Source: a virus
Taxonomy: Duplodnaviria; Caudoviricetes
DNA length: 63,305 bases
Reading direction: 5' to 3' (one strand)
IMG/VR virus record: IMGVR_UViG_3300032087_001789
Span: 1-63,305 of that record
Shown here: one piece after another, positions 13,616-60,947 of the stretch
Numbering within the stretch: the first letter of the stretch is position 1
How the letters are laid out: every line of letters starts with the position of its first letter
Notes under the pieces: model-generated
What the model was told of the DNA's origin: nothing
Seen by the model: the letters and a program-made list of their open reading frames with translations, nothing else
Databases searched by the model: none
Position numbers and translations under genes: made by a program

Positions 13616-13889
13616 TTGGACGGGTTGGGAAAGAACGGTCTGCTACAACTCGATGAGACGAGTGCAGGACGGAATTGATATCCGTGATGGAGCGTACGTA
13701 GACGAAATAAATAAATGGGCGCTTGTTTTCGAGGCGATGACGGGGTATATTAACGTAACCTCGAAACTCGTTGAGGACAAGTCTGTTAGCGCTGAGGCAT
13801 CTATCATCAAGTTCCTTGAAGAGTTCGACAAGACGACATCACTCGACATCTTGTATAACGTTGTAAACACTATCCGCAATGACAGATAA
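13449..13889 (+). CDS. DnaA domain IV-like HTH protein
   Basis: SRQRNFLIPRQVLFYVL...L..WTG.ERTV...RRV resembles the DnaA C-terminal pattern. Confidence 0.6.
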   Translation: MRMTKKIFDRLVQKYEEEFDLNPLKKSRQRNFLIPRQVLFYVLNTKFHLHFQTLSDWTGWERTVCYNSMRRVQDGIDIRDGAYVDEINKWALVFEAMTGYINVTSKLVEDKSVSAEASIIKFLEEFDKTTSLDILYNVVNTIRNDR

Positions 13890-14352
13890 ACAAAGAAAGG
13901 ATACGAAGATATTCCAAGGAGTGTTGATGTATTTCCCTAACGCTATCCGTGAGGTAGCCAAGTGTAGTCTCGCATCAAACAGACAGCACAACGGAGATGC
14001 ACCGCTCTATTGGGATATGAGTAAATCTAAGGATGAACTTGGTAGTCTAACACGCCACCTCGTTGACCTTGCCTCGGGAGAGGAATACGATGAGGATGGA
14101 ACGCTCAACCTTGCGAAGATTGCGTGGAGAGCGCTTGGCGCATTGGAGCGACATCTAACGGGCGATGAGTCCTTTGAGAATGAAAACTTTTACAAAGAAT
14201 TAAAATCCACAGACAATGGCGAAGAAAGAACCGAGAGTAACGATGTTTCAGTCAGTCTTCAAGACCGACAAGCCGTATCATATAACCCTTACGACTGCAC
14301 TCAAACGCATAGCGGAGGGGTCATCCAAGGATACGATACAAGCCGTACGTGA
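13879..14352 (+). CDS. dATP/dGTP diphosphohydrolase-like (DUF5664) protein
   Basis: YFPNAIREVAK.S...N.QH...L.WD..KS...SL.RHL...LAKIAWRAL..LE. Confidence 0.75.
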   Translation: MTDKQRKDTKIFQGVLMYFPNAIREVAKCSLASNRQHNGDAPLYWDMSKSKDELGSLTRHLVDLASGEEYDEDGTLNLAKIAWRALGALERHLTGDESFENENFYKELKSTDNGEERTESNDVSVSLQDRQAVSYNPYDCTQTHSGGVIQGYDTSRT

Positions 14353-18919: not shown

Positions 18920-18975
18920 TATATTTGAAAGTTCTTGAGATGAGAGGGGGATGCTTCGGTGTCCCCCTTTGTTGT
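18920..18975 (+). promoter_or_regulatory. TATATTTG promoter followed by a UUCG hairpin with a U tract
   Basis: TATATTTG 18920-18927; AGGGGGATGC-TTCG-GTGTCCCCCTTT. Confidence 0.6.
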
Positions 18976-19001: not shown

Positions 19002-19238
19002 ATGGGAAAAGTATCAATTGACCCCAATCGCTACATTAAGCGCAATGTCACAAAACTAAAGCACAAGTGGTATAGACTATATACCTCGTTCACGATAAGA
19101 AACGGTAGCATCTACCTAATAGAGAACAAGATGTACCAAGTGTGGAACGGAAGATACACTCTCATAGGAGAGGTCGATGACTTGATTTGCGATGGGGATT
19201 TAACTACGATACCAACTTCAGCAATTACAAATCCTTAA
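19002..19238 (+). CDS. Hypothetical protein (start moved to 19002)
   Basis: AT-rich leader before MGKVSID. Confidence 0.6.
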   Translation: MGKVSIDPNRYIKRNVTKLKHKWYRLYTSFTIRNGSIYLIENKMYQVWNGRYTLIGEVDDLICDGDLTTIPTSAITNP

Positions 19239-19250
19239 ATAACAAAAACA

Positions 19251-19370
19251 ATGACAGACTTTGAATTAGACGGAGACTTCGCAGACTTCGTAGACCAACT
19301 TGCTAATGACGAAAAGAACGAGAATGCTTGTAGCATAGACAACCCCGAGTGTGAGGCTTGTGGCTCGTAA
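19251..19370 (+). CDS. 39-aa acidic peptide ending in CSIDNPECEACGS (RNR C-terminal tail-like; not in ORF track)
   Basis: A-rich leader AACAAAAACA-ATG; translated by eye. Confidence 0.8.
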   Translation: MTDFELDGDFADFVDQLANDEKNENACSIDNPECEACGS

Positions 19371-19373
19371 TCT

Positions 19374-19583
19374 ATGTGTATGCAATGTAAAGGGATGTGC
19401 GAGTCTTGTAAGGCTGAGTACATCAACAGACGACTCCACCAATGCGCTAATCTGTTTGCGAACTTGGGAACAGACTCAACCCAAAGTGAACGGGACGAAG
19501 CGTACGCTGAAGAAGAGCGTCTGCTTAAAGAAATTATGCAAGTAGACTTGGAAAAAGGTAAGCGACTCCTTAATTTAGAGTAA
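19374..19583 (+). CDS. Small Cys-rich protein
   Basis: CxxCxxxCxxC N-terminus. Confidence 0.65.
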   Translation: MCMQCKGMCESCKAEYINRRLHQCANLFANLGTDSTQSERDEAYAEEERLLKEIMQVDLEKGKRLLNLE

Positions 19584-19594
19584 AAGCAATACAT

Positions 19595-19798
19595 ATGCCG
19601 AACTACAGACATAAAGAAACGGGCGAGGTCAAACGCTTCGCTCAAATCAGAATCACGTGGAACTCGGACGGCTCGAAGACTGAGACTTGTCTAACCACGG
19701 GCGAGAGCCTCTTAGAGAATTGGGATTTCATTCCGCCTAACGGAGAATGGAATGTCAAGATGAAGAAAGCCGCACGAGATGGCGGTGGATTGCGCTAA
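19595..19798 (+). CDS. Small hypothetical protein (FmdB-like N-terminus)
   Basis: MP.Y.....GE. Confidence 0.6.
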   Translation: MPNYRHKETGEVKRFAQIRITWNSDGSKTETCLTTGESLLENWDFIPPNGEWNVKMKKAARDGGGLR

Positions 19799-20040: not shown

Positions 20041-20442
20041 TTACTTCTTATTCCAAACACGAATCGCTTTCTCAACACCACGGCTACCAATGTAGAACGA
20101 GATGTAGGAAACGTAAACGGTTTCGATAAGAGGTAAGTATGCTTCTTTGATTTGGAAAGCACCAAGGTTTCCGTCCAAGAAAATCATAAGCAGGACAATG
20201 ATAGTCCATATCATAAAGCCTATAGGACGTACTGACTTAGCGAACCAATTGTCGGAGTTCATATCAGCCTTGAGGCGCTCTGTTAACTGCTCTTCGTAGT
20301 AACGCTCCTCTGCTTGAATCTCCTCTTCTGTTAGTTTGTACTCGTCGATAAGTTCTGCAACTTTCTCGATGCCGCCACCTTCTTTGATGGTAGTCTGCAC
20401 ACCGCTAACGAGTCCTTTGAGTAACATAGCAATCTTATTCAT
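20041..20442 (-). CDS. Putative holin (3TM/GTA-holin-like)
   Basis: DM.SDNW.AKSVRP, two TMs, YIGSRG.EK. Confidence 0.75.
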   Translation of the reverse strand: MNKIAMLLKGLVSGVQTTIKEGGGIEKVAELIDEYKLTEEEIQAEERYYEEQLTERLKADMNSDNWFAKSVRPIGFMIWTIIVLLMIFLDGNLGAFQIKEAYLPLIETVYVSYISFYIGSRGVEKAIRVWNKK

Positions 20443-20443
20443 A

Positions 20444-23400
20444 TCAGTCTCTGTTTAAAATTAATACCATTTTTACTAATGCTCCTTCGCCTTCTTTGAG
20501 GGCGTAGTATTTTAAGAGGTCTTGCTCGAATGCTTTAGCCTCTTCTGTTGTCATTGACTTCATTACCTTCTTAGCGATGACTGCGGCATCACGTGGGTCT
20601 TGAGCCATCTTGTTGATATCACGGATAGTATTGATATACTTGTTGCTCGGTAGTTTGTCAGCCTCTACAGACTTGACCACCTTGTTTCCGATGATGGACT
20701 CGACACGACCCTCGATACCCGTTGGGTTGTCTCCGACCATACCTTCTACCGTTTCTTGAAGCAACTTAGTACCCTTTTCTCCTTCGTTGATAATCATACG
20801 ACCAATAGCCTCATTCTCGTTAGTGATACCACGCTCACCGATTTGACGCTCTCTTCTCTTGATTACTTGAATAGACTCCTTAGAGAATAGACCCGTGAAC
20901 GCACCCGTAGTCAACAGACTCAACTTAGCAGTCTCTAAGTTCATCATCTTCTTAGCATCCTCTGTAGATAGATACTTGGTAGTACCAAATGATGTTACGT
21001 AGTGAGGGTTGTCTTCACTCAATGTGCTTAGATTCTTAATAGATAGTGCGTATTCCGATATCATATCCCCGTATACACCTGCTGATTTCAACCACGTCAA
21101 CCAAGACGCATCCCCACGACCCACACTACTGAAGATTGGTAGACCATTAGCACGTTCCCACGCTTTGTAGTTCTCCCAAAAATCTCTATCCTCAAAGTCG
21201 TGTTCTCCATCCGAGAACGCTGTGTAGCCCACCAAGTTCAACATCTTAGTGTACATAGACTCCATAACCCCGATAGGTAGAACCAATGGGTTCATATCGG
21301 TAGCCATACCTTTCAAGAACATCTTCAAAGAGAACTCTCTGTCGAACCAAGAGTCTTCCTCTTCTCCTTCTCCGCCAATCAAAGAACCTGCAAGACCATT
21401 GATTATCGGAACGATAACGAACTGAGACATTGCGTGGAACGCAGCAACCTCGAGCGCAGTACCGCCAATAGACTTGGCTGCATTTGCTCTTGTCTCTCCT
21501 TTTCCTAAGTTACGGAAGTCTAACGCAAGGTTAATCTTCTTGTTGAGTAGGAAGTTAGCAAACGGCATAACCAACATTTGAATAACCGCAGCCACCTGTG
21601 AAGAGTTTAGTCTGTTGAAGTCTGACTTGTCGCGCTTCGTAGAAACGTTTTGGTCTTTCGCTACCATCGTAGATGCGTATGCACTTGCGCCCTCGTCGAT
21701 GTTTGCACCCCATTCAGCCCAAACCTCATCGCTGACCTGCCCATTGAAGCCATTCTCTTTACGCATATAACTCTCGTAGTACATCAACCAAGATGCAGTA
21801 GCCGCAACCTTATCGGTGTTACGTAGCGCAGCCGTAGACGCATCAAAGAATCCTTTACGCATACGCTTCCAACTATTCTTCTCAGCAAGAGCGTTACCCT
21901 CTACGGTAGCGTTAACAGTCTCTTTAATGTAGTCACGCTGACCGATGTCCGCTTGAGCCAAGATAGTGCGCTGTCCTTCGTTGTATTTACCCGTAGTGGC
22001 TGTCATAACGTACCCCAACAAGTGTAGTGGGTTACCACCTTCTATTATGGTGTTCATAATAGCCGAAGACTGCTTCAAGATTTGATTGAACACACCACCG
22101 AAGTAGTACAATACCGTTAGGTTGTTCATCTCGTTTGCAAACTTAGCCAAGTTAGTACCGAGCATTTGGTCTGTTGACCTTGCAACTGCGATATCATCAG
22201 TCAAGAACTGAACTATCTTGCGACGCATATCTCGTCTGTCTTGTGGGTCACGTACAACTTTTTTGAACTGCTCATTAGACTCAGAAGTCATAGCAGACAC
22301 TTTAGCAACGCTATATGCCGTGCGAGTCTTAACCTCATTTTGCCTGTACGTTCTGCTCAATGAAGAGTAGAAGTTCATATCAATGTATCTCGTCTTGCTA
22401 CCCATAGCGTTCTCATTACGCTCGTAGGTAGATGACGCTTGTCTGTTTGCTTTACTTAGATTGTAAGAGTTAAAGGCTGACTGAATGTTAGCCATATCGT
22501 CTTGAATCTTAGTGATGTCATCGTTCGTAGAGCCTACTGCACGGAATCCAATCGGCAGGTAGTTCTCTTCCTCTTTGAAGTTCATACCGAGGAACTCCTC
22601 AGCATAACGCTTGACCGCCTTGCCTTGTCTCTTAAAACGAGAGCGCAATTGGTCAATCATCTTCATCATATTCTTATCGGACTCGAGTTCCTTAACGATA
22701 GCGTTATAGTTCTTTTTCTTACCATTCTCGGTGTAGAACACAGAATCCAAAGTCTCTCTAATCTCTTTTCTTTGATTTTTACCCTTACCTCTTAGTCTAC
22801 CACCGCTACTCCAACGTGGGTCGTTAGACAGACTCAACTCAAAGTTAGCAATCACCTGAGCCAAATACTGAGTCTGATTCACGCCTTCAGGCTTCTGAGT
22901 CAGGACAGAGTAAATCTGCATACGTACCTGAGATGCTATCGAAGTCTGTCCGAACTGCTTAGCCAACTTGATGAGGTCTTGGTTGAAGTCCTCTGCAATT
23001 TTATCAGCCAAAGATGCTTCGTTACGTAGCGATGAGAATCCTGAGATTTCCATAAACTTAGCGATACGAGCCTCGGATGACTTGAAGATACGACGCATAA
23101 ACGTAGGCGTGTTCTCGAAACGAGATGACACCCAATGCAACGGAGTCTTCTTAGCAGTCTCTCTTGACTGCAGACCAAGTGCTTTCAGCGCTTTGTTTCC
23201 GTCGTTCTTAGCAACTGCAGATGCAGCCAATGCGTTGATACCCAATGCCTTACCGTTTACAGCGAAGTCATACATAGCGAACTCTAAACGCTTCAACTCT
23301 AACGGAGTCAGCGCATCCATTCTGCTCTTGACTATTGATGCTGCAACGTCGTCTTCCATCTCTTCGGTGATACCAAAAATGGCGGCGAAGTTAGGGTTAG

Positions 23401-26400
23401 ACTCGTATAGTCTGCGGAAGTTCAGGAACGTTGGGATGATAGCCTCATCTATGATGACTTGTCTGTTCTTGTTCAACTGCTCCTCCTTGGCTTCAGCGTA
23501 CAACTCCAATGCCGCCTCGAAGTCGTTAATATCGTTGAGGTCAAGCCCCATTTCATCAGCGATGGCGGTTAGTTTTTTCTGTACACCCTTGAGTTCTTTC
23601 TCGTTGATTTGACGCATCAAACCTTCGTACTCAGTAACCCAATCTGTTCCATTCTCAAAGGCTAAGTCTGCAGCCTTTTCAACTAACTGTTTCTCCTGTA
23701 GGGATACCTCTTCTACCTTTAGTCTCTCGAAGATTTCGTTGAAGTATACCTTCGCGCGACGCATATCTACTTTTCCTAAACCTTCAATCTCAACATAAGG
23801 ATTAGATAATTCACCCTTTCTTACTGAGACAGATTTAGTAGAGATATTCAAGTCTTTGATTGTATCCTCTAATAACTGTAAACTCTCTGCACTTAGTAGA
23901 GCAGGGTTAATACTTGTAATATCAAGAATCTGTTCTGCATAACTAATGAGAGGACTACGTGATGTAGGTTTTAGTTTTTTAAATCTGTTTCTTAAATCTT
24001 TTTGTGCTTTCTCTACACGCTTCAATTGGTTGATGTAATCGTTAAGACCTTTAGCATCCATCTGCTTCTCTACAATCTTAACAACTTTGTCAACAACAGA
24101 GTTCAGTACCTCGTATCTAATATCGGGGTCAACAGCATTACGACCTTTCATCTTAGCAACCTTGGCTGCAGTACGAATCAACTGAGCAACCTGAGTAGGC
24201 TTAATCTCTACCCCTGCTTCTTTGATGACACGAATCATCTCGTTGATAATGTTTCTGTTTACCTTCTTCTCTGTCTTGAGGACAGCCGCTAATTTCTTAC
24301 GTAGGTCTTTAGCCTTGCTTGACTCAGCCTTACGCTCTGCTTTGCGCTTCGCAGCCAACTGAGCAGAACGCTCACGAGTTCCCTCTTTCCAACCTTGCTT
24401 AACGCCTCTTGCATTCTGTGATGCTTTAGCGTAGATAAGGTTAGCATCAGCACGGCTCATACCCTTAGCACGTAATGAGGCGATGATATCAGCCTTCTTT
24501 TCGCCGAGTAGGATGCGCTGTGCAATGCTTGTAATGATTGTAGATTGGAAGAAGACTCCTGCCTTACGCTTAGTCTCGGGGTTAACAGACTCCTGCATAT
24601 CCTTGAAAGATACACCCTCAATCTCAGCGGCACGTTCCAATACCATACCAACAGGTAGGGACAGCATTTCAAAATTACCCTCCTTGTTTTTAAACTCACG
24701 AACCTTAGCATTTCCTTCTTCGGTCAACTGAGTCGCAGCCTCTTGTAAGACATTCATACGACCCTCTAAAGTCTGACCAACGATTAGAGACTCTAATAAT
24801 GTTTTTCCATCGTAAGAAGTACCTGCATCAGAAACAATACGCTTCAATGATTTGTCTCCCGCTTTTTCTGCAGAGACATAACCGCTTTTTGCTGTGAGTC
24901 TGTCTGCTAAATAAGTCTTGCCCTGCCCTCTTAGTCTTCCTGCAACACTACGTATAATGTCTCCTTTTGCTTTGTTGCGTTTTTTCTCGTCTTCGATGGC
25001 GTTAATTTCGTCAACTTGCGCTTGGGTTAACTCCCCTGCCTCAACCAATAGTTCTAATTGTTGCTTACCCGAAAGTTTGACTTCTGTTGTAGTAGATGCT
25101 GACAGGTCGGCAATTTGATATATGTTATCCTTTCTGTTAGCAATACCAAGAGCCTTACCTTTAATATCTGTGCTGTATGTGGAGTGATTTCCGTCTTGGG
25201 TAACTACTCTCCCGTCAGCGTCTCTTTCAAACTCGTAGAACGCATAGATGTCTCCCGTGGTAAACTCGTTTTCAACCAAGTATCCGTCTCGCATATCGTT
25301 TTGATAATCGAAATCAGACTTCATTCCCAAGTTCTCCATAAAGGCTTTCATCTCACCACTTGTGGTTAAGAACATATCCAAGCCGCTCATTCTGTCTCCT
25401 TTAGACTCCTCTAAATAAGAATCAAGTGTGTCGTGCTTTGCGATTTCTTCCATAAAGTTACCTCGACCCTCTTTCTTATCCTCTTTGGACTCTTTGTAAA
25501 TTGCAGCAGGTTTTTTACCGTTTTCTGCTAAACTATTATAGAAGAATTTGATAGCCTGTAATGGGTCTGTAAATCCTTCAGTTGGAACATCTATGTTAAA
25601 CTTCTTACCACGAGCAGGAAACTCAATAGACTTTCCTTTGTTTCTATTGAACGCTTCCATTAACTCCGTGTAGACCACCCTTGATGTACCTTTGTAGAAT
25701 CTGTGACCCGTTTCAGGTTTACCTGATACAATAGCAACGATGTCAGCATCTTTCACAAGACCTTGAACCTCGTTGTTGTTTTTGTTAGTAGCCCATACCA
25801 CTCCCTTGTCTGTGTTAGCAGGGTCTTGAGAGAATGATATACCACCCTCTAACTCAATCTTAGTACCATCTAACGTGGTGTAAGTACCACGAGCAGATTG
25901 GTCACCCATCCAAAATAGAATCTTAGGTGGTCTGCCGTTTTCTTTCTCGAAGTTCTGTACTACTGTAGCAAGGTTTGTGAACTTTGTATCCTCGTTAATG
26001 AACGAACCTGCAAAGGTCTTGCCCTTAGCAACCTTGATAGTAGCCTTTTTAACCTTAGCCATAAGTTTAGACTTAACGGGATGCTGAAGCGCCCCTTGGC
26101 TATTGTCATCTTTTAGTTTGTTTTCCGATAGTTGGAAGAATACATTTGCAGACCTTTGATTTACGTTTGCAGCATCAATGTAAGTCTTAGTTGTATTCTG
26201 TGATGTTACATCTACAATAGCATCTAAGATAGAAGTACCTTCAACAACACCGAAGTCTCCGTATACCGTCTTGATTAGATTAGCAACCATTGCCTTGAAA
26301 GCATCAAACAGAGTAGACCCTGTGAGGGTAAACCCTTTGCTCTCTATGAGGTTTTGAGTCTTGCTATCTAACGGGATACTACCGATAGTCTGTTGGAATC

Positions 26401-29400
26401 TTAGGTTAGAGAATGCCTCTGCGACAAACTCGTGCACGTCGGTAAACCCATACTGCCCCAAAAGCGACTCAGAGCGTTCGTCTTGGCTGTTCTCTATGAA
26501 TGACTTAGCGTCAGCCATAAGAGCATCCAAAGTCTCTCTAAACGCAGGATTACTCTCAAGTTGCAACGAGGTAAATCCGTGAATTGCTTCGTGTAGCAAT
26601 GTTGATGCAAAGTCGTTAAAGTTCTTTACACCTTCAGAGCCTTGGTTTACGACAATAGTATTGTCTAAGTAAGGATTCCAAAAACCATATAGTTTAGTAT
26701 TCTCTTCTTGGAATATGTGGTCTGACAAAGAACCATCATCTACGATTACGTTCATCTTGTTTAGGATGCCCATATTCTTTAAAACTTTCAAGCCATCCAA
26801 TGTGTCTTGGTCAATGTTTTCAGAAGACATACTATCGTCAAGCAATGAGTTCACTACATCAAGTGCAGAGAATCCCGACTGCTGAACTCCAAACAACAAT
26901 GTGTTTCTATACCAATTACCCCAAGCCTTAGACTCCTCGTTAAGTTCGAGTTTCTCGTGCTGTTGGATAATGTTGTCAATGTTCTTTTCTGTTACGCTTC
27001 TTTTCGCTGTGTCAGGGTTTACATTAGGCGTTAGTCCGAATCTTTCGTTTAGCCAATTACCCATAAGGGTGTTAGAGGTGTTAACTTGGAAGAATGTACC
27101 TTCCTTGACCTTACTCTCTCCGAATCGACCCATAGTCTCAGTAAGCATCTGCCCCGATTGGAAGTCACCTGCTACAGACTCGACATATTTGGCGAACTGT
27201 GAGAACGTACCGTTACGCTTTAGGTTGATACCAAGGACAGCGCCAACAGTTTTACGCAGACTCTCCATACCCGCACGGACAACACTTGCCCCTGCTCCCT
27301 CCATAGAGATGTCTCCTACAGCGATATCCGCAGCCATTTCAGCGAATGTTTCCTCGATAGCCAAGGCTTCACCGCCTTGCTTCATAGCCGCTCTGTATAT
27401 TTGGACATACTTAGCACGAGTCGCTCTATCCATACCATTGAATGCTGCGTCTATAAATCGCTTAGCATACTTAGGGTCTACCTTGCGTAGAATCTTGTGG
27501 AATCCTTCGTGGAATGCTGTGTTGTTCTGAGCCATATTCGCCATAATGTGAATAGACCCATCCTCAGCCATATAAAAACCGTTAGAACCTGCAAGAGTCT
27601 GTTTGTCTACTCCTGAGATTGCTTCAGCGTCGTCTAAGTTTTTGTGCAAGAATACCTTGCCTTCGCCTTTAAACACGTTAGCCACATTTTTAATGCCTCG
27701 CATAAGTGGTGTGTCAGGCAGTTCTGTATTTTCATCAACCTCTATACTCGTAGTCATACCGCCTACAAATTCAGAGTTTGCTTGTTTTTGCGCTTTCATT
27801 TCAGCGATTTGAGGCTCATACTTGGCTTCAATCGCTTTGATAGAGTTGTATTGTTCTTTTGCTTCCGCACGTAGACGCGCTCTTTCCTCTTTGCTTAGGC
27901 TTTTTTCTTGGCGTAACCTACGCATATTCTCAGAAAGCCCTTGATTTAATTCTACGGTACGCTGAGCATCCTCGTCTGTGTATTGTTCGTAGACGCCTTC
28001 CATTTCGGTCTGCATCTGAATCTCCAACTTAGACAGAGTTTTGAGTTTAGTCTGTATCGCTTCGCGTCTTCTTGCGTCTGTAGTATTGCGTAGTTCCTCA
28101 GCAAGTTTCTGTTTGTTATTGCGAATCTTAATAAGGTCGCTACGCAAACCACCAAAGCCCATAGCAGAAACACCTGCGGTAAGAAGACCACGTCCTTGGA
28201 TAGCCGCTTTGACAGATGTAGAACCTGCACCCATACCAAACCCTACAATAGCAGAGTCAAGCAATTCATAGATGTTAGGCATCTCTTCGTCGTTTGCAAT
28301 GGAGTGAACCACGCCCGAACCAACGGTTGCAATAATCTCTTCTACAGCCTCTTCAGAACCTTGCTTTACGAATTTAAGACCTGCATCTTTTGCAAAGTCT
28401 CTTAGTTCCTTGGACAGCAAACCTTTCTTAAACAGAGTCTGCTTAATCTCTTGACGGCTCATATTTGCAAAAGCACCTTTACCTGCAAGTGCTTTAATAT
28501 CCGATGCAAACACACGCTCAGAGAACAATTCAACAGCGGCATCTCCAAGAGCCATAGTGAATGCTGTTCCATCGTCCATATGTTTTCCGTACGTGTCAGC
28601 CCAAGTTCTACCAAACGTAGACAGACCCATAAATGCAGAAGAACTCCATAACATAACAGAGTTACCCAACCCACGTGTAAAGTATGCTACTGCCGCTTGT
28701 GCTATCAACTGAGGTGCAGTCTGAGCGGCTTGGTGATAGAACATAGCACGAGCAGCCCTAAGGTTTCCTTCTGCAAGGTTTTCCGAAACGCCTTTTGATA
28801 TTTCGTCGTCCGTTAAGTCCCAACCTTCTTTTAGGTTGGCTTGACTACGGAATGAGTTGTCGTACATATCTACTGCAGCGCCGTGTCTGTCGTACAGAGA
28901 TTGGAAACTGTTTCCCAAGTCCATAACACCCGTACCAAAGTCGTACATAAAGTTACCGAAAGCACCAAGATTATCATCCCACCATTCAGCGTCTTCTACA
29001 TCTTCTGCGTATCTTTTTGCATTGTATCTGCTAATAACTTGCAGTTCCCCGAAAGTTTGTCGTGTAGGCTCTCCGATAAACTCGCCTGTGCGAAGGTCTA
29101 TTATATCATCAGGGGTAGGTTCGTGACCAATATTAAGCATCTCTTTGACGGTTGTTGAGTAATATTCCCCTTTCTTATGTACAGCAGACTCGTCAAATAC
29201 ATTTCCCCCCTCGTCAAGAAACTCATTTAAAAGCCAAACAGAAGGTTCTGTCCCTCCATAATATTCATTGTGTAACTCAATTTTATCGTCGTAAGCCGCT
29301 AAAAGTGCTTTATCTCCGTTTATTTGTCCCCCCTGTAATTGGCGCACAAGCCTAATAACATCTTCTTTGCTTTCCGCTTGACGGATAGCCTTAACCATAA

Positions 29401-30205
29401 TGTCTAACTTACCGTTTGCGTCTTTTACAAATGGAGGCTGATGTTGAGACGGATGAGGATGTGTATACTCAAGGGCATTTAATGGAAGAAACATATTACC
29501 ATTTGCTACAACGGTAGCATCAGTATATGCTGTACCAAATTCATCTGTTTGACTCCATTTAGAGTAGGGTATGTTTTTGTCCCAATCTTCGTTACCTGCG
29601 TGGTACTTAAAATAACGGTCTACCCAAAATTCTTCTGCTATTTGGAGTTGCGATAAACTGTGTTCAAGATGACGACTTCCATATGATATTTCAAGTAATT
29701 GTTTCTCCCTGTAATCCTCGAGAGACATACCTGCTTCCATTGCCCTGTATTCTTCGTCGGTCAATTCAGCATATTTAATGGTAGGGTCGACTTCAACCTC
29801 GTGCTTTAAAATAGCGGTTGCATCTCTTACACCACGGGGGTCTGATTCTGCATATTCACGTGCAGCCTCAGTCCAATAATCAGTCTTTTCGGTAGACTCC
29901 GAAGTAGATTCTTCCAATAGAGAATCCAATGAAGATTCTGCTGAAGTAGAGTCCAAAGAATCTTCCACGAAGGACGAGTCTGAATTTTTTTTTTCAGACC
30001 CTATGCCGACTTTAGAGAAAAAGTCTTGTTGTGATACATCATCTTGGAACGTGTCGTCGGTAGTGCCTATGTAGTCGTAAATCTGTTCTGCATATTCGGT
30101 ATCGCTCATTTTCTGAGCAAAGTCCTCAAACGAAACGTCTTGAGAATATGTTTCGTCTTGTTTGGATATATAACTATATAGTTCTTCTAAGTATTCCTCG
30201 TTCAT
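20444..30205 (-). CDS. Giant (~3250 aa) virion or ejection polyvalent protein with two zincin metallopeptidase motifs
   Basis: HEGFH...EE.FAE and HEAIH...HEFVAE; acidic N-terminus; start moved to ATG 30205 because the track start overlaps the promoter. Confidence 0.8.
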   Translation of the reverse strand: MNEEYLEELYSYISKQDETYSQDVSFEDFAQKMSDTEYAEQIYDYIGTTDDTFQDDVSQQDFFSKVGIGSEKKNSDSSFVEDSLDSTSAESSLDSLLEESTSESTEKTDYWTEAAREYAESDPRGVRDATAILKHEVEVDPTIKYAELTDEEYRAMEAGMSLEDYREKQLLEISYGSRHLEHSLSQLQIAEEFWVDRYFKYHAGNEDWDKNIPYSKWSQTDEFGTAYTDATVVANGNMFLPLNALEYTHPHPSQHQPPFVKDANGKLDIMVKAIRQAESKEDVIRLVRQLQGGQINGDKALLAAYDDKIELHNEYYGGTEPSVWLLNEFLDEGGNVFDESAVHKKGEYYSTTVKEMLNIGHEPTPDDIIDLRTGEFIGEPTRQTFGELQVISRYNAKRYAEDVEDAEWWDDNLGAFGNFMYDFGTGVMDLGNSFQSLYDRHGAAVDMYDNSFRSQANLKEGWDLTDDEISKGVSENLAEGNLRAARAMFYHQAAQTAPQLIAQAAVAYFTRGLGNSVMLWSSSAFMGLSTFGRTWADTYGKHMDDGTAFTMALGDAAVELFSERVFASDIKALAGKGAFANMSRQEIKQTLFKKGLLSKELRDFAKDAGLKFVKQGSEEAVEEIIATVGSGVVHSIANDEEMPNIYELLDSAIVGFGMGAGSTSVKAAIQGRGLLTAGVSAMGFGGLRSDLIKIRNNKQKLAEELRNTTDARRREAIQTKLKTLSKLEIQMQTEMEGVYEQYTDEDAQRTVELNQGLSENMRRLRQEKSLSKEERARLRAEAKEQYNSIKAIEAKYEPQIAEMKAQKQANSEFVGGMTTSIEVDENTELPDTPLMRGIKNVANVFKGEGKVFLHKNLDDAEAISGVDKQTLAGSNGFYMAEDGSIHIMANMAQNNTAFHEGFHKILRKVDPKYAKRFIDAAFNGMDRATRAKYVQIYRAAMKQGGEALAIEETFAEMAADIAVGDISMEGAGASVVRAGMESLRKTVGAVLGINLKRNGTFSQFAKYVESVAGDFQSGQMLTETMGRFGESKVKEGTFFQVNTSNTLMGNWLNERFGLTPNVNPDTAKRSVTEKNIDNIIQQHEKLELNEESKAWGNWYRNTLLFGVQQSGFSALDVVNSLLDDSMSSENIDQDTLDGLKVLKNMGILNKMNVIVDDGSLSDHIFQEENTKLYGFWNPYLDNTIVVNQGSEGVKNFNDFASTLLHEAIHGFTSLQLESNPAFRETLDALMADAKSFIENSQDERSESLLGQYGFTDVHEFVAEAFSNLRFQQTIGSIPLDSKTQNLIESKGFTLTGSTLFDAFKAMVANLIKTVYGDFGVVEGTSILDAIVDVTSQNTTKTYIDAANVNQRSANVFFQLSENKLKDDNSQGALQHPVKSKLMAKVKKATIKVAKGKTFAGSFINEDTKFTNLATVVQNFEKENGRPPKILFWMGDQSARGTYTTLDGTKIELEGGISFSQDPANTDKGVVWATNKNNNEVQGLVKDADIVAIVSGKPETGHRFYKGTSRVVYTELMEAFNRNKGKSIEFPARGKKFNIDVPTEGFTDPLQAIKFFYNSLAENGKKPAAIYKESKEDKKEGRGNFMEEIAKHDTLDSYLEESKGDRMSGLDMFLTTSGEMKAFMENLGMKSDFDYQNDMRDGYLVENEFTTGDIYAFYEFERDADGRVVTQDGNHSTYSTDIKGKALGIANRKDNIYQIADLSASTTTEVKLSGKQQLELLVEAGELTQAQVDEINAIEDEKKRNKAKGDIIRSVAGRLRGQGKTYLADRLTAKSGYVSAEKAGDKSLKRIVSDAGTSYDGKTLLESLIVGQTLEGRMNVLQEAATQLTEEGNAKVREFKNKEGNFEMLSLPVGMVLERAAEIEGVSFKDMQESVNPETKRKAGVFFQSTIITSIAQRILLGEKKADIIASLRAKGMSRADANLIYAKASQNARGVKQGWKEGTRERSAQLAAKRKAERKAESSKAKDLRKKLAAVLKTEKKVNRNIINEMIRVIKEAGVEIKPTQVAQLIRTAAKVAKMKGRNAVDPDIRYEVLNSVVDKVVKIVEKQMDAKGLNDYINQLKRVEKAQKDLRNRFKKLKPTSRSPLISYAEQILDITSINPALLSAESLQLLEDTIKDLNISTKSVSVRKGELSNPYVEIEGLGKVDMRRAKVYFNEIFERLKVEEVSLQEKQLVEKAADLAFENGTDWVTEYEGLMRQINEKELKGVQKKLTAIADEMGLDLNDINDFEAALELYAEAKEEQLNKNRQVIIDEAIIPTFLNFRRLYESNPNFAAIFGITEEMEDDVAASIVKSRMDALTPLELKRLEFAMYDFAVNGKALGINALAASAVAKNDGNKALKALGLQSRETAKKTPLHWVSSRFENTPTFMRRIFKSSEARIAKFMEISGFSSLRNEASLADKIAEDFNQDLIKLAKQFGQTSIASQVRMQIYSVLTQKPEGVNQTQYLAQVIANFELSLSNDPRWSSGGRLRGKGKNQRKEIRETLDSVFYTENGKKKNYNAIVKELESDKNMMKMIDQLRSRFKRQGKAVKRYAEEFLGMNFKEEENYLPIGFRAVGSTNDDITKIQDDMANIQSAFNSYNLSKANRQASSTYERNENAMGSKTRYIDMNFYSSLSRTYRQNEVKTRTAYSVAKVSAMTSESNEQFKKVVRDPQDRRDMRRKIVQFLTDDIAVARSTDQMLGTNLAKFANEMNNLTVLYYFGGVFNQILKQSSAIMNTIIEGGNPLHLLGYVMTATTGKYNEGQRTILAQADIGQRDYIKETVNATVEGNALAEKNSWKRMRKGFFDASTAALRNTDKVAATASWLMYYESYMRKENGFNGQVSDEVWAEWGANIDEGASAYASTMVAKDQNVSTKRDKSDFNRLNSSQVAAVIQMLVMPFANFLLNKKINLALDFRNLGKGETRANAAKSIGGTALEVAAFHAMSQFVIVPIINGLAGSLIGGEGEEEDSWFDREFSLKMFLKGMATDMNPLVLPIGVMESMYTKMLNLVGYTAFSDGEHDFEDRDFWENYKAWERANGLPIFSSVGRGDASWLTWLKSAGVYGDMISEYALSIKNLSTLSEDNPHYVTSFGTTKYLSTEDAKKMMNLETAKLSLLTTGAFTGLFSKESIQVIKRRERQIGERGITNENEAIGRMIINEGEKGTKLLQETVEGMVGDNPTGIEGRVESIIGNKVVKSVEADKLPSNKYINTIRDINKMAQDPRDAAVIAKKVMKSMTTEEAKAFEQDLLKYYALKEGEGALVKMVLILNRD

Positions 30206-30231
30206 GATGTCATCATTTGTTTCTGATAACA

Positions 30232-30239
30232 CAAATATA
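30232..30239 (-). promoter_or_regulatory. Bacteroidota -7 promoter TATATTTG
   Basis: Intergenic, upstream of the giant gene. Confidence 0.75.
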
Positions 30240-42148: not shown

Positions 42149-42253
42149 ATGAGCAACGCAAGACTCGAGGGAGAAACTTTTGAGGAGTACAAAGAAAGAC
42201 GCAGGGCGACAAACGCAATGCTAAAGCAATATCTTAAAGGCAGACGACTATGA
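42149..42253 (+). CDS. 34-aa peptide (not in ORF track)
   Basis: MSNARLEGETFEEYKERRRATNAMLKQYLKGRRL; ATGA-coupled to the amidase. Confidence 0.6.
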   Translation: MSNARLEGETFEEYKERRRATNAMLKQYLKGRRL

Positions 42254-42663
42254 GGAATATCAAAGAAGTAATCATCCATTGTTCAGCAACAGTTGAAGGA
42301 AAAGACTTTGATGTTAACGACATTGACCGTTGGCATCGAGATAGAGGGTGGAATGGGTGTGGATACCACTATGTAATTAAGTTAGATGGTACTATCCAAG
42401 CAGGTAGACCGCTTGACAAAATTGGCGCTCACACAAAAGGAAGAAACCAAGGTAGCATCGGTATTTGTTATATCGGTGGTGTAGATGAAAACATTGACGC
42501 TAAAGACACAAGGACAGAAGCACAGAAGATTTCAATGCAACGTTTAGTATCTGCTATTAATGTTTTGTTTGGTGGAAATATCAAGGTGTATGGACACCGA
42601 GAGTTTGCGAGAAAGGCTTGTCCCTCGTTTGAGGTCAAGGATGAGTTCTCAGCATATAGATAA
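42250..42663 (+). CDS. N-acetylmuramoyl-L-alanine amidase endolysin (T7 lysozyme-like)
   Basis: IIHCSAT, GYHYVI, GAH.KG.N, GH..F..KACPSF. Confidence 0.93.
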   Translation: MRNIKEVIIHCSATVEGKDFDVNDIDRWHRDRGWNGCGYHYVIKLDGTIQAGRPLDKIGAHTKGRNQGSIGICYIGGVDENIDAKDTRTEAQKISMQRLVSAINVLFGGNIKVYGHREFARKACPSFEVKDEFSAYR

Positions 42664-60076: not shown

Positions 60077-60364
60077 TTACTTGCTAAATCGTTCAGCAAA
60101 TCCACCCGAGAAATCTTGCTTCTCTTCTATCTCCCCTGTCTCTTGTGCATTTTTTATCATTTGCTCTATCTCTTGTCGCATTACCAACATATCCTTAGCA
60201 TCTGATGTAGCCTGTTTAATTGATGCAAGTTCCGCCTTACGACCTGAGCCGTTTAGTTCAGAGTCAACAGGTTTCTTGATTTCCTCAATCATGTTGTTGA
60301 TAGCAATCTCTGTTGATTCCAATAGGCGTATTGCAGCCTCTAATGTGAAGTTCTTATTTGACAT
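60077..60364 (-). CDS. Helical protein, possible terminase small subunit
   Basis: Directly upstream of terL; GFAERF C-terminus. Confidence 0.45.
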   Translation of the reverse strand: MSNKNFTLEAAIRLLESTEIAINNMIEEIKKPVDSELNGSGRKAELASIKQATSDAKDMLVMRQEIEQMIKNAQETGEIEEKQDFSGGFAERFSK

Positions 60365-60947
60365 AAGCCGCGTAAATAAAGTCAGGCTTCATACGGAACA
60401 CCTGTGAGCCATCGGGCAGGGTAATTCTGTAGTCCGCATTCTGCTTATATATAACTAAGTCTCCAACCTCGATACCTGCTTCCTCTGTCCCTTCGCTCGG
60501 GTATAGTACAACAGCCTCGTTTTTAGTTTCAACCTTCTGAGTACCTAAGTATAAACCACTTGCAGATATAACCTCTTCCTCTACGTCAGGCACAGCCTCT
60601 AAGATTACCCAAGTTCCCAAAACGGTAACTGAACCGTCTTGATGGATAACCATATACGCCTGTCCCATAATTTCGGTTGGGTGGTATGCTACCAAGTAGC
60701 AGTCGTCCCCAAGACCAAACTTGTCAGGTTGTTGGTTGACGTGGTGGTGAAACACAAGCGTGTCCCCAATCTGTACTTTTTCAGGGATGTCCCACTTAGC
60801 GGGGATAGCCTTAATAGTACCATAAGAGATACGCCCCTCGAAATCATCAAAGCGCGTATCCTTAATCAAAGTTGTTCCGTCAGATAACTTAATATCGTCT
60901 TGGTATAGTTTACCAATCTCTACTACAAAGTCGTATAATGGTTTCAT
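60354..60947 (-). CDS. Tandem GroES-like co-chaperonin
   Basis: MKPLYD.V.V..GD.LVF and T/SASGLYL...G.EVGDLVIY repeats. Confidence 0.7.
   Translation of the reverse strand: MKPLYDFVVEIGKLYQDDIKLSDGTTLIKDTRFDDFEGRISYGTIKAIPAKWDIPEKVQIGDTLVFHHHVNQQPDKFGLGDDCYLVAYHPTEIMGQAYMVIHQDGSVTVLGTWVILEAVPDVEEEVISASGLYLGTQKVETKNEAVVLYPSEGTEEAGIEVGDLVIYKQNADYRITLPDGSQVFRMKPDFIYAAYVK

Follow-up and report, generated by a model that had tools for sequence, protein, structure and literature searches.

How might a phage that lacks a ribonucleotide reductase (RNR) use a 39-codon gene whose product ends like the large subunit of that enzyme? The question is raised by the genome of a tailed phage (Duplodnaviria; Caudoviricetes) represented by IMG/VR record IMGVR_UViG_3300032087_001789, a sequence of 63,305 nt with direct terminal repeats and a completeness of 100; this whole stretch of DNA was analyzed and is referred to here as the window. 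The gene is transcribed rightwards (+ strand; coordinates 19251–19370, including the TAA stop codon at 19368–19370), begins with ATG and encodes the 39-aa peptide MTDFELDGDFADFVDQLANDEKNENACSIDNPECEACGS. It had first been noticed in a reading of the sequence alone (the original prediction), and its position behind an A-rich leader, its coordinates and its translation are all reproduced exactly. The product is predicted to be a two-part micropeptide, with an acidic amphipathic helix followed by a flexible tail copying the C-x6-C-x2-C-G-S end of the RNR alpha subunit, NrdA. We give about an even chance to the proposal, derived from sequence comparison, that it acts on the host NrdA as a tail supplied in trans in the thiol relay of that enzyme.

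The C-terminal module of the peptide (A26-C27-S-I-D-N-P-E-C34-E-A-C37-G-S39; coordinates 19326–19367, + strand) is a copy of the NrdA redox tail. A phmmer search of the PDB yields a sole near match, located at the very chain end of a 963-aa ribonucleoside-diphosphate reductase (5im3_A), with 12 of 13 positions identical between residues 950–962 of the enzyme (QACSIDNPDCEAC) and residues 25–37 of the peptide (NACSIDNPECEAC); the E value is only 0.39 because the matched stretch is short. The single NCBIfam match is to the NrdA equivalog NF005544, at profile positions 942–964 of 965 (E 0.0076; 14.1 bits against a cut-off of 965), and a bacterial copy of the peptide matches the same family only (positions 939–964 of 965, E 0.0026). 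The pattern CSIDNP[DE]CE forms the extreme C-terminus of long NrdA-like open reading frames (ORFs) in 119 of the 120 bacterial loci listed. NrdA proteins of the host-like Flavobacteriales end in ...ACSIDNPDECEACGS, near-identical to the last 14 residues of the peptide, and those of the relatives of a Cryomorphaceae metagenome-assembled genome (MAG) end in ...EKIACSIDNPDEC[VI]ACGS. A full-length host-like NrdA (G053) is most similar among PDB entries to 3hnc (1215 bits) and 1zyz (1189 bits), RNR large subunits that we take to be those of human and yeast, respectively, and the host-like NrdA is therefore of the eukaryote-like type. The original prediction had claimed a likeness to the tail of eukaryote-like class Ia alpha subunits and had proposed alignment with Flavobacteriia NrdA C-termini as a check; both the likeness and the alignment hold up. 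Judged from these alignments, the resemblance is real and beyond chance.

The last residues of the tail vary among lineages. None of the ten peptide endings listed finishes in Q; the 85 unique coding sequences end in CGS (66/85) or CSG (19/85), and CGA is present in P0013. NrdA tails from records with Pseudomonadota titles mostly end in ...C-E-[AS]-C-Q. Seven NrdA tails end in CGS, CGA or CSA, six of them from records titled Chitinophagales, Cyclobacteriaceae, Saprospirales or Bacteroidetes/Bacteroidota and the seventh (L170) from a MAG titled Limnohabitans. In an AlphaFold2 (AF2) model, peptide residues 20–39 are largely without regular structure.

The ORF is a real protein-coding gene that belongs to a conserved family and is under protein-level selection. 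A phmmer search of 1.84 billion cluster representatives returns 21 proteins at E≤1e-3 (best 1.6e-12), all of them small (35–128 aa) and 20 with the same motif at the terminus; searching at 90% clustering with a 41-aa homologue (P0001) adds 24 further clusters, all unnamed or 'hypothetical', and a 'longer' search with this homologue scored nothing from four candidates, a negative of little weight. Relatives in the ESM Atlas fall only in unnamed small-protein clusters, and Pfam and PHROGs profile scans place the peptide in no family. When the DNA pattern for CSIDNP[DE]CE is applied to viral contigs, at least 120 carry it; among the 120 listed, at least 110 have a short stand-alone ORF, eight have a long NrdA-like ORF ending in ...CSIDNPDCESCQ, and two are cut by the contig edge. 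In rare fusions a different N-terminal part precedes the same tail (L081, of 114 aa, and L008, with a Cys-rich extension), and neither fusion protein has a family match.

From 98 viral loci, 70 distinct peptides were assembled in alignment A2. The search pattern forces part of the tail, and the unforced positions were therefore examined. C37 is invariant in all 85 unique coding sequences, encoded by TGT (59) or TGC (26), and a stop follows two codons past it in all 85. F10 is kept in 82/85 (TTC 39, TTT 43) and L17 in 68/85 with all six Leu codons in use, and synonymous sites are saturated among these sequences (pooled pS 0.8, pN 0.4). In alignment A1, C27, C34, E35 and C37 are invariant, and conservation is at least 90% at F10, D12, F13 and L17. 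Metatranscriptome contigs of 339 nt and 223 nt, from seawater and marine libraries of two studies, cover the whole ORF with three differences (19277, 19307 and 19340), all of which are third-position and synonymous.

The N-terminal module (residues 5–19, with the core F10-x-D12-F13-V-x-x-L17; coordinates 19263–19307, + strand) is a predicted amphipathic acidic helix. With a 69-sequence alignment, AF2 gives one helix from residue 5 to 19 (mean pLDDT 72, and about 86 in the helix block), the hydrophobic face of which (F10, F13, V14 and L17) is conserved within an acidic sequence. Of the 70 peptides, 64 contain the core F-x-[DSEQN]-[FW]-[VIL]-x-[EDQ]-[LMI], which has a single match among the 126,606 six-frame residues of the window.

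The helix resembles neither RNR subunit closely. The C-termini of host-like NrdB proteins are ISFDADF, FTFDADF, FSLNEDF or DDAFADLNF, and window residues 4–10 (FELDGDF) fit the F-x-L-D-x-D-F of an inhibitory mammalian heptapeptide, the competitive RNR inhibitor P7 (N-AcFTLDADF), as described in PMC3483043; P7-like mimics of the beta-subunit tail carry F-x-[LIF]-[DN]-x-D-F at a free C-terminus, but in the peptide the motif is internal. Mimicry of the beta-subunit tail by the N-terminal half was rejected, with the strict heptad present in only 1/70 peptides and alignment to 18 distinct NrdB tails giving p values of 0.58 (window) and 0.057 (bacterial copy) against composition-matched shuffles. 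Alignment of this half to the 30 residues before the Cys motif of NrdA likewise scored no better than shuffles (p 0.30 for the window and 0.19 for the bacterial copy). Host-like NrdA tails share with the peptide the order of helix, linker and Cys motif (the peptide helix being that of the AF2 model), and the simplest origin is the 3'-terminal ~40 codons of nrdA, followed by remodelling of the helix.

The peptide is like class Ia NrdA tails of the NrdAe type in its near-identical terminal Cys motif preceded by a linker and helix, but it is 39 aa in total, has no catalytic barrel and is encoded alone, mostly by phages without an RNR. Its helix is acidic and aromatic whereas those of NrdA tails are basic and Ala-rich, and its Cys spacing is C-x6-C in contrast to the C-x7-C of Cryomorphaceae-like NrdA. 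It has the Cys pair on a flexible extreme C-terminal tail that is typical of RNR alpha subunits (PF02867/NF005544), but it lacks their catalytic domain, a ten-stranded barrel of about 520 residues, and is therefore not a member of the NrdA family. Nor is it a redoxin: no Pfam or NCBIfam match to thioredoxin-fold redoxins (Trx, Grx and NrdH; CxxC, about 75–110 aa) is found, and the AF2 model is one helix plus coil.

The peptide-bearing viral records searched have no RNR alpha of their own. RNR alpha (PF02867) has no match in the complete 63,305-base record, in agreement with the earlier statement that no RNR gene is visible in this genome, and none in the 21 other peptide-bearing viral records, four of which are at least 90% complete; the same search matched all four of the NrdA-bearing viral records used as a control. 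Thioredoxin is absent above the cut-off from all 22 peptide-bearing records (with one sub-threshold match of 15 bits), and glutaredoxin is absent from all 22. A tblastn search of the GenBank phage collection finds no stand-alone copy, returning only the nrdA tails of two Acinetobacter phages (E 0.2). The peptide gene would resemble other phage auxiliary genes, such as whole nrdA and nrdB genes or the thioredoxin gene nrdC, in being aimed at the deoxynucleoside triphosphate (dNTP) supply, but in contrast to phage nrdA and nrdB it carries only a ~14-residue enzyme module; a full NrdA with the same tail is encoded by 8 of the 120 viral loci listed.

Stand-alone copies are also present in bacteria. 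The sole stand-alone match in the genome collection (L213) is on a 399-kb contig of the Cryomorphaceae MAG, where it is flanked by a TonB-dependent receptor gene, a glucosaminidase-LysM gene, an S-adenosylhomocysteine hydrolase gene and a phosphopantetheinyl transferase/GNAT gene, phage genes being absent from its surroundings. With the A2 profile, full-length stand-alone copies are found, in a normal chromosomal context, in 32 of 61 relatives of this MAG (E 1e-16 to 2e-20), and all 30 bacterial loci fetched encode a peptide of 39–40 aa, in 14 variants. The peptide gene is about 8.5–10 kb from nrdA on the same contig in the 19 genomes compared, a proximity that may reflect conserved gene order among close relatives. 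No copy is found in relatives with only a short class-Id-like NrdA, and 300 other genomes, sampled evenly across the class, contain no stand-alone copy at E≤1e-8. On this distribution the family is mainly viral, and its cellular members belong to a single narrow clade.

In this clade the peptide gene and nrdB share a promoter element. Upstream of the bacterial peptide gene there is a conserved block, ...TAACTCCCACAAAATCAAAAA(N)AATTGTTAATAACGC, with diverging flanks, and the nrdB upstream regions contain GTTGTTAATAAC-TGTGGGA-AAAACCC. The exact 11-mer TTGTTAATAAC occurs 4–7 times per genome in five genomes of 1.7–2.1 Mb (0–4 times for the reversed control); in four of the five, one site lies ahead of nrdB and another ahead of the peptide gene, and in the fifth the peptide-gene site is one base off. 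Among the five sites in the L213-bearing MAG (G001), TGTGGGA/TCCCACA and AAAAACCC/GGGTTTTT adjoin only the nrdB and peptide-gene sites, and the other three are in or beside unrelated genes. The composite element (TTGTTAATAAC, TGTGGGA and AAAAACCC) is located at G001:C2:145204-145214 and 131942-131952, and ~190 nt upstream of nrdB in loci L253–L278. We read it as a shared operator that probably co-regulates the peptide gene with nrdB. Its interpretation as an NrdR box was dropped, as NrdR is found in none of the five genomes of the clade searched; it may be the operator of a further RNR regulator. An Rfam search of five of the bacterial loci reveals no family for the upstream element.

Three other features of these bacteria were observed. 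The nrdA gene of the L213-bearing MAG (L243; G001:C2:141767-143344) contains one in-frame TAG, the relatives' genes being intact, which could be a sequencing error, a pseudogene or read-through. Other relatives (G042–G065) have a short NrdA (551–610 aa) and a long NrdB (up to 441 aa), an arrangement that looks like class Id, with an ATP-cone on NrdB; none of them has the peptide. Matches resembling thiamine pyrophosphate riboswitches (39–50 bits, under the gathering score of 54.3) are situated ~1.4 kb from the bacterial peptide gene (L336:2855-2960, L338:14-120, L326:11-117 and L337:3000-3105), probably ahead of the TonB-dependent receptor gene.

The known chemistry of RNR suggests how a free tail could act. 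Each turnover oxidizes an active-site Cys pair that is re-reduced by the Cys pair of the alpha tail, which is itself reduced by thioredoxin or glutaredoxin (PMC3483043, PMC11903788, PMC6382339). The alpha tail is described as competing with nucleotides for the active-site pocket (PMC11903788), and, alongside the electron shuttling by tails, beta-tail peptides are described as RNR inhibitors (PMC3483043). A free copy should meet the same partners as the tail of the enzyme, and we therefore read the peptide as a putative trans-acting NrdA tail. It would be modelled on the eukaryote-like class Ia alpha subunit of Flavobacteriales hosts and would encounter both the oxidized active-site pocket of the host NrdA and the reductant that recharges it, with the helix perhaps serving as a docking or adaptor part. 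A phage without an RNR would thereby reach into the dNTP supply of its host. We infer that the peptide binds NrdA, is redox-active and affects dNTP pools.

The direction of such an effect could be either of two: an extra diffusible shuttle that sustains host RNR turnover while phage DNA is being made, towards which we lean slightly, or a competitive plug that would brake the enzyme as Sml1 does. The shuttle is favoured because all three Cys residues are kept, the gene is apparently co-regulated with nrdB and the phages rely on the host RNR. The brake is favoured because there are precedents for it, namely Sml1, the toxic C-terminal domain of UN-24 (PMC3618301) and the inhibitory beta-tail peptides. 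Yeast Sml1, which like Hug1 and Spd1 restrains RNR, resembles the peptide in being small and largely disordered, and its proposed site of action is the place on the large subunit at which the tail operates (PMC6382339, citing Zhang 2007); however, Sml1 is eukaryotic and is not a tail copy, and no relation in sequence is seen, the peptide having no Pfam match. The Neurospora UN-24 incompatibility domain is a free C-terminal piece of a fungal RNR large subunit that, in the account of PMC3618301, acts in trans, forming a non-reducible complex with yeast Rnr1p and causing toxicity. Unlike the peptide it is 135 aa long, fungal and allele-specific in its recognition, and is not a separately encoded natural gene. 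The more extended proposal, that this is a natural diffusible RNR tail, co-regulated with nrdB in one marine Flavobacteriales clade and carried by RNR-less phages that use it to tune the host enzyme, we hold to be just short of an even bet. A shuttle in trans or a thioredoxin decoy was the interpretation offered in the original prediction, and the sequence comparisons leave it plausible and partly supported. What lies beyond it is the large family in uncultured marine phages, the bacterial clade, the N-terminal helix, the element shared with nrdB, and the lysis-cassette setting, which that interpretation does not explain.

Several observations weigh against these proposals. The shared element was found post hoc, and since the genomes that show it are close kin it represents few independent events; the one more distant bacterial copy examined (G056) has no clear shared element, and the nrdB-type 11-mer has three matches in the window at ≤1 mismatch, within chance and none near the peptide gene. 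The type of the host NrdA is an assumption based on the tail ending and on a weak similarity of the phage DNA to that of Flavobacteriia phages. The search pattern itself imposes part of the tail conservation counted among the viral loci, and the metatranscriptome contigs are a hint of expression from libraries of RNA that can hold DNA. Finally, peptide-bearing phages have genomes of roughly 30–60 kb and in many of them the gene lies within the lysis cassette, a position that fits a lysis-linked role or a mere cargo slot. Loci of the F type (72/98) have an endolysin (M15 or Amidase_2) directly upstream in 29 and a phrog_3427 holin directly downstream in 35, and those of the W type (26/98) have an endolysin upstream in 12 and a gene with a lipobox and transmembrane (TM) segment downstream in 13.

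Two other explanations seem unlikely, to similar degrees. In the first, the peptide is a decoy for thioredoxin or glutaredoxin, with the free tail soaking up or redirecting host reductant and shifting the cytoplasmic thiol balance for some other need of the phage. The tail is a natural substrate of these reductants according to PMC3483043 and PMC11903788, the invariance of the three Cys residues and E35 is as expected if redox chemistry matters, the 22 viral records have no thioredoxin or glutaredoxin above cut-off, and the rare fusions L081 and L008 carry the tail on unrelated N-termini as if it were active alone. However, the bacterial gene shares its promoter element with nrdB specifically, and it is not evident what a cell would gain from a decoy of its own thioredoxin.

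The second is that the peptide is an accessory of the lysis cassette, sensing thiol or metal status or modulating a Zn-dependent endolysin or a holin, with its tail likeness due to shared chemistry or a borrowed module. The order of endolysin, peptide and holin (or u-spanin-like) genes is tight in many loci, with a holin family gene directly 3' of the peptide gene on the same strand in 52/121 sources and an M15 endolysin gene directly 5' in 57/121, and the lipoprotein gene downstream in W-type loci overlaps the 3' end of the peptide gene. The window breaks this order, however: the peptide gene is in an early/replication strand block, the holin gene is convergent with it and the endolysin gene is 23 kb away. 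Moreover, the bacterial copies have no phage-type lysis genes nearby beyond the housekeeping-looking glucosaminidase-LysM gene, the peptide lacks both a signal peptide and a TM segment, and slots beside lysis genes commonly hold cargo genes. The product of the W-type downstream gene, 137 aa long, combines a lipobox (…LALGSC…) with a membrane helix at its C-terminus; the gene is present at L053:1218-1631 (+) and in 35 other viral loci, starting ~31 nt before the Cys motif and read in a different frame. Pfam and PHROGs give no match for the protein, which looks like a unimolecular spanin of Flavobacteriales phages.

A far less probable explanation is that the peptide is the precursor of a ribosomally synthesized and post-translationally modified peptide (RiPP), with an acidic FxLD-like leader and a Cys/Ser-rich core; the DFELD/DFNLS-like N-terminal motif and Cys/Ser core are in our estimation superficially similar to lanthipeptide precursors. 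No maturase-like family (radical SAM, LanB/C or YcaO) is found, however, in the window or among the neighbours scanned with Pfam and PHROGs, which were those of 40 of the 45 commonest clusters (five antisense-overlap clusters being left out), and the identity of the core to an enzyme tail would be left unexplained. The least probable, an inert leftover of a lost nrdA 3' end or a chance ORF, accords with the confinement of the NrdA match to the last ~23 positions but is already disfavoured by an N-terminal module that is conserved and not found in NrdA, by variable codon use at conserved residues with the start and stop kept in 85 unique coding sequences, and by a family spanning very different phage backbones and one bacterial clade.

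Within the window the peptide gene is tightly packed among other small rightwards-transcribed genes. It is preceded by an A-rich 12-nt spacer (19239–19250, + strand; ATAACAAAAACA) that has no Shine-Dalgarno-like purine run; related loci also show A-rich leaders ahead of the gene, an arrangement that presumably suits translation starts of the Bacteroidota type. The upstream ORF (19002–19238, + strand), encoding 78 aa from the ATG at 19002, belongs to no family and has its stop at 19238. Downstream, the next ORF (19374–19583, + strand) has its ATG at 19374, 3 nt past the peptide stop, and encodes a 69-aa member of a small helical family that is present at varying positions in 62/121 sources compared. 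The family pattern is …LF.NLG.DST..E….AY..E…I….LDP.KA…, and a Cys-rich N-terminus (MCMQCKGMCESCK) is seen in the window copy only. A terminator-like hairpin (18943–18970, + strand) precedes the 78-aa ORF, which is the first gene past it and the first of a four-gene small-ORF block (19002–19798) that closes the plus-strand replication/recombination module. The block converges on the leftwards-transcribed holin gene (phrog_3427; 20041–20442, – strand), 670 nt beyond the peptide gene, and the Amidase_2 endolysin gene is at 42250–42660.

Pfam and PHROGs scans show that, with this endolysin, the window genome encodes a crAss-type muzzle protein, an ERF recombinase and a primase-helicase. Its DNA similarity is weak and solely to Nonlabens, Cellulophaga and Tenacibaculum phages. 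An ORF of 3262 aa (20444–30232, – strand) adjoins the gene for the crAss-virus muzzle-domain protein (PF25731, PF25729; 32578–36426, – strand), and the presence of both in a 63-kb genome suggests a crAss-related podovirus of marine Flavobacteriales. The sole other hint of nucleotide metabolism in the phage is a dATP/dGTP diphosphohydrolase N-terminal domain (PF18909) at 13879–14352 (+ strand). A 197-aa protein encoded at 60357–60947 (– strand) matches Cpn10, a GroES-like co-chaperonin, over its C-terminal half.

At the level of listings and abstracts, no description of a stand-alone RNR tail peptide was found in print. The tail itself is known, and what is new is the RNR redox tail as a free-standing, mostly virus-borne gene. 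No de novo route to dNTPs exists other than RNR, and re-reduction via the alpha tail is among the steps of the enzyme that are least understood; a free tail peptide of natural origin would offer RNR enzymologists a ready probe of this step. If the proposed function is correct, this would be the smallest auxiliary metabolic gene known, and either the first trans-acting RNR tail or a bacterial analogue of Sml1-type control, and the control of RNR in bacteria without NrdR (0/5 genomes searched) would gain a post-translational layer. Phage ORFs of about 40 codons can prove abundant, conserved and interpretable, and in this case viruses would have a new means of seizing the nucleotide supply of their hosts, with one short enzyme module and without the whole enzyme.

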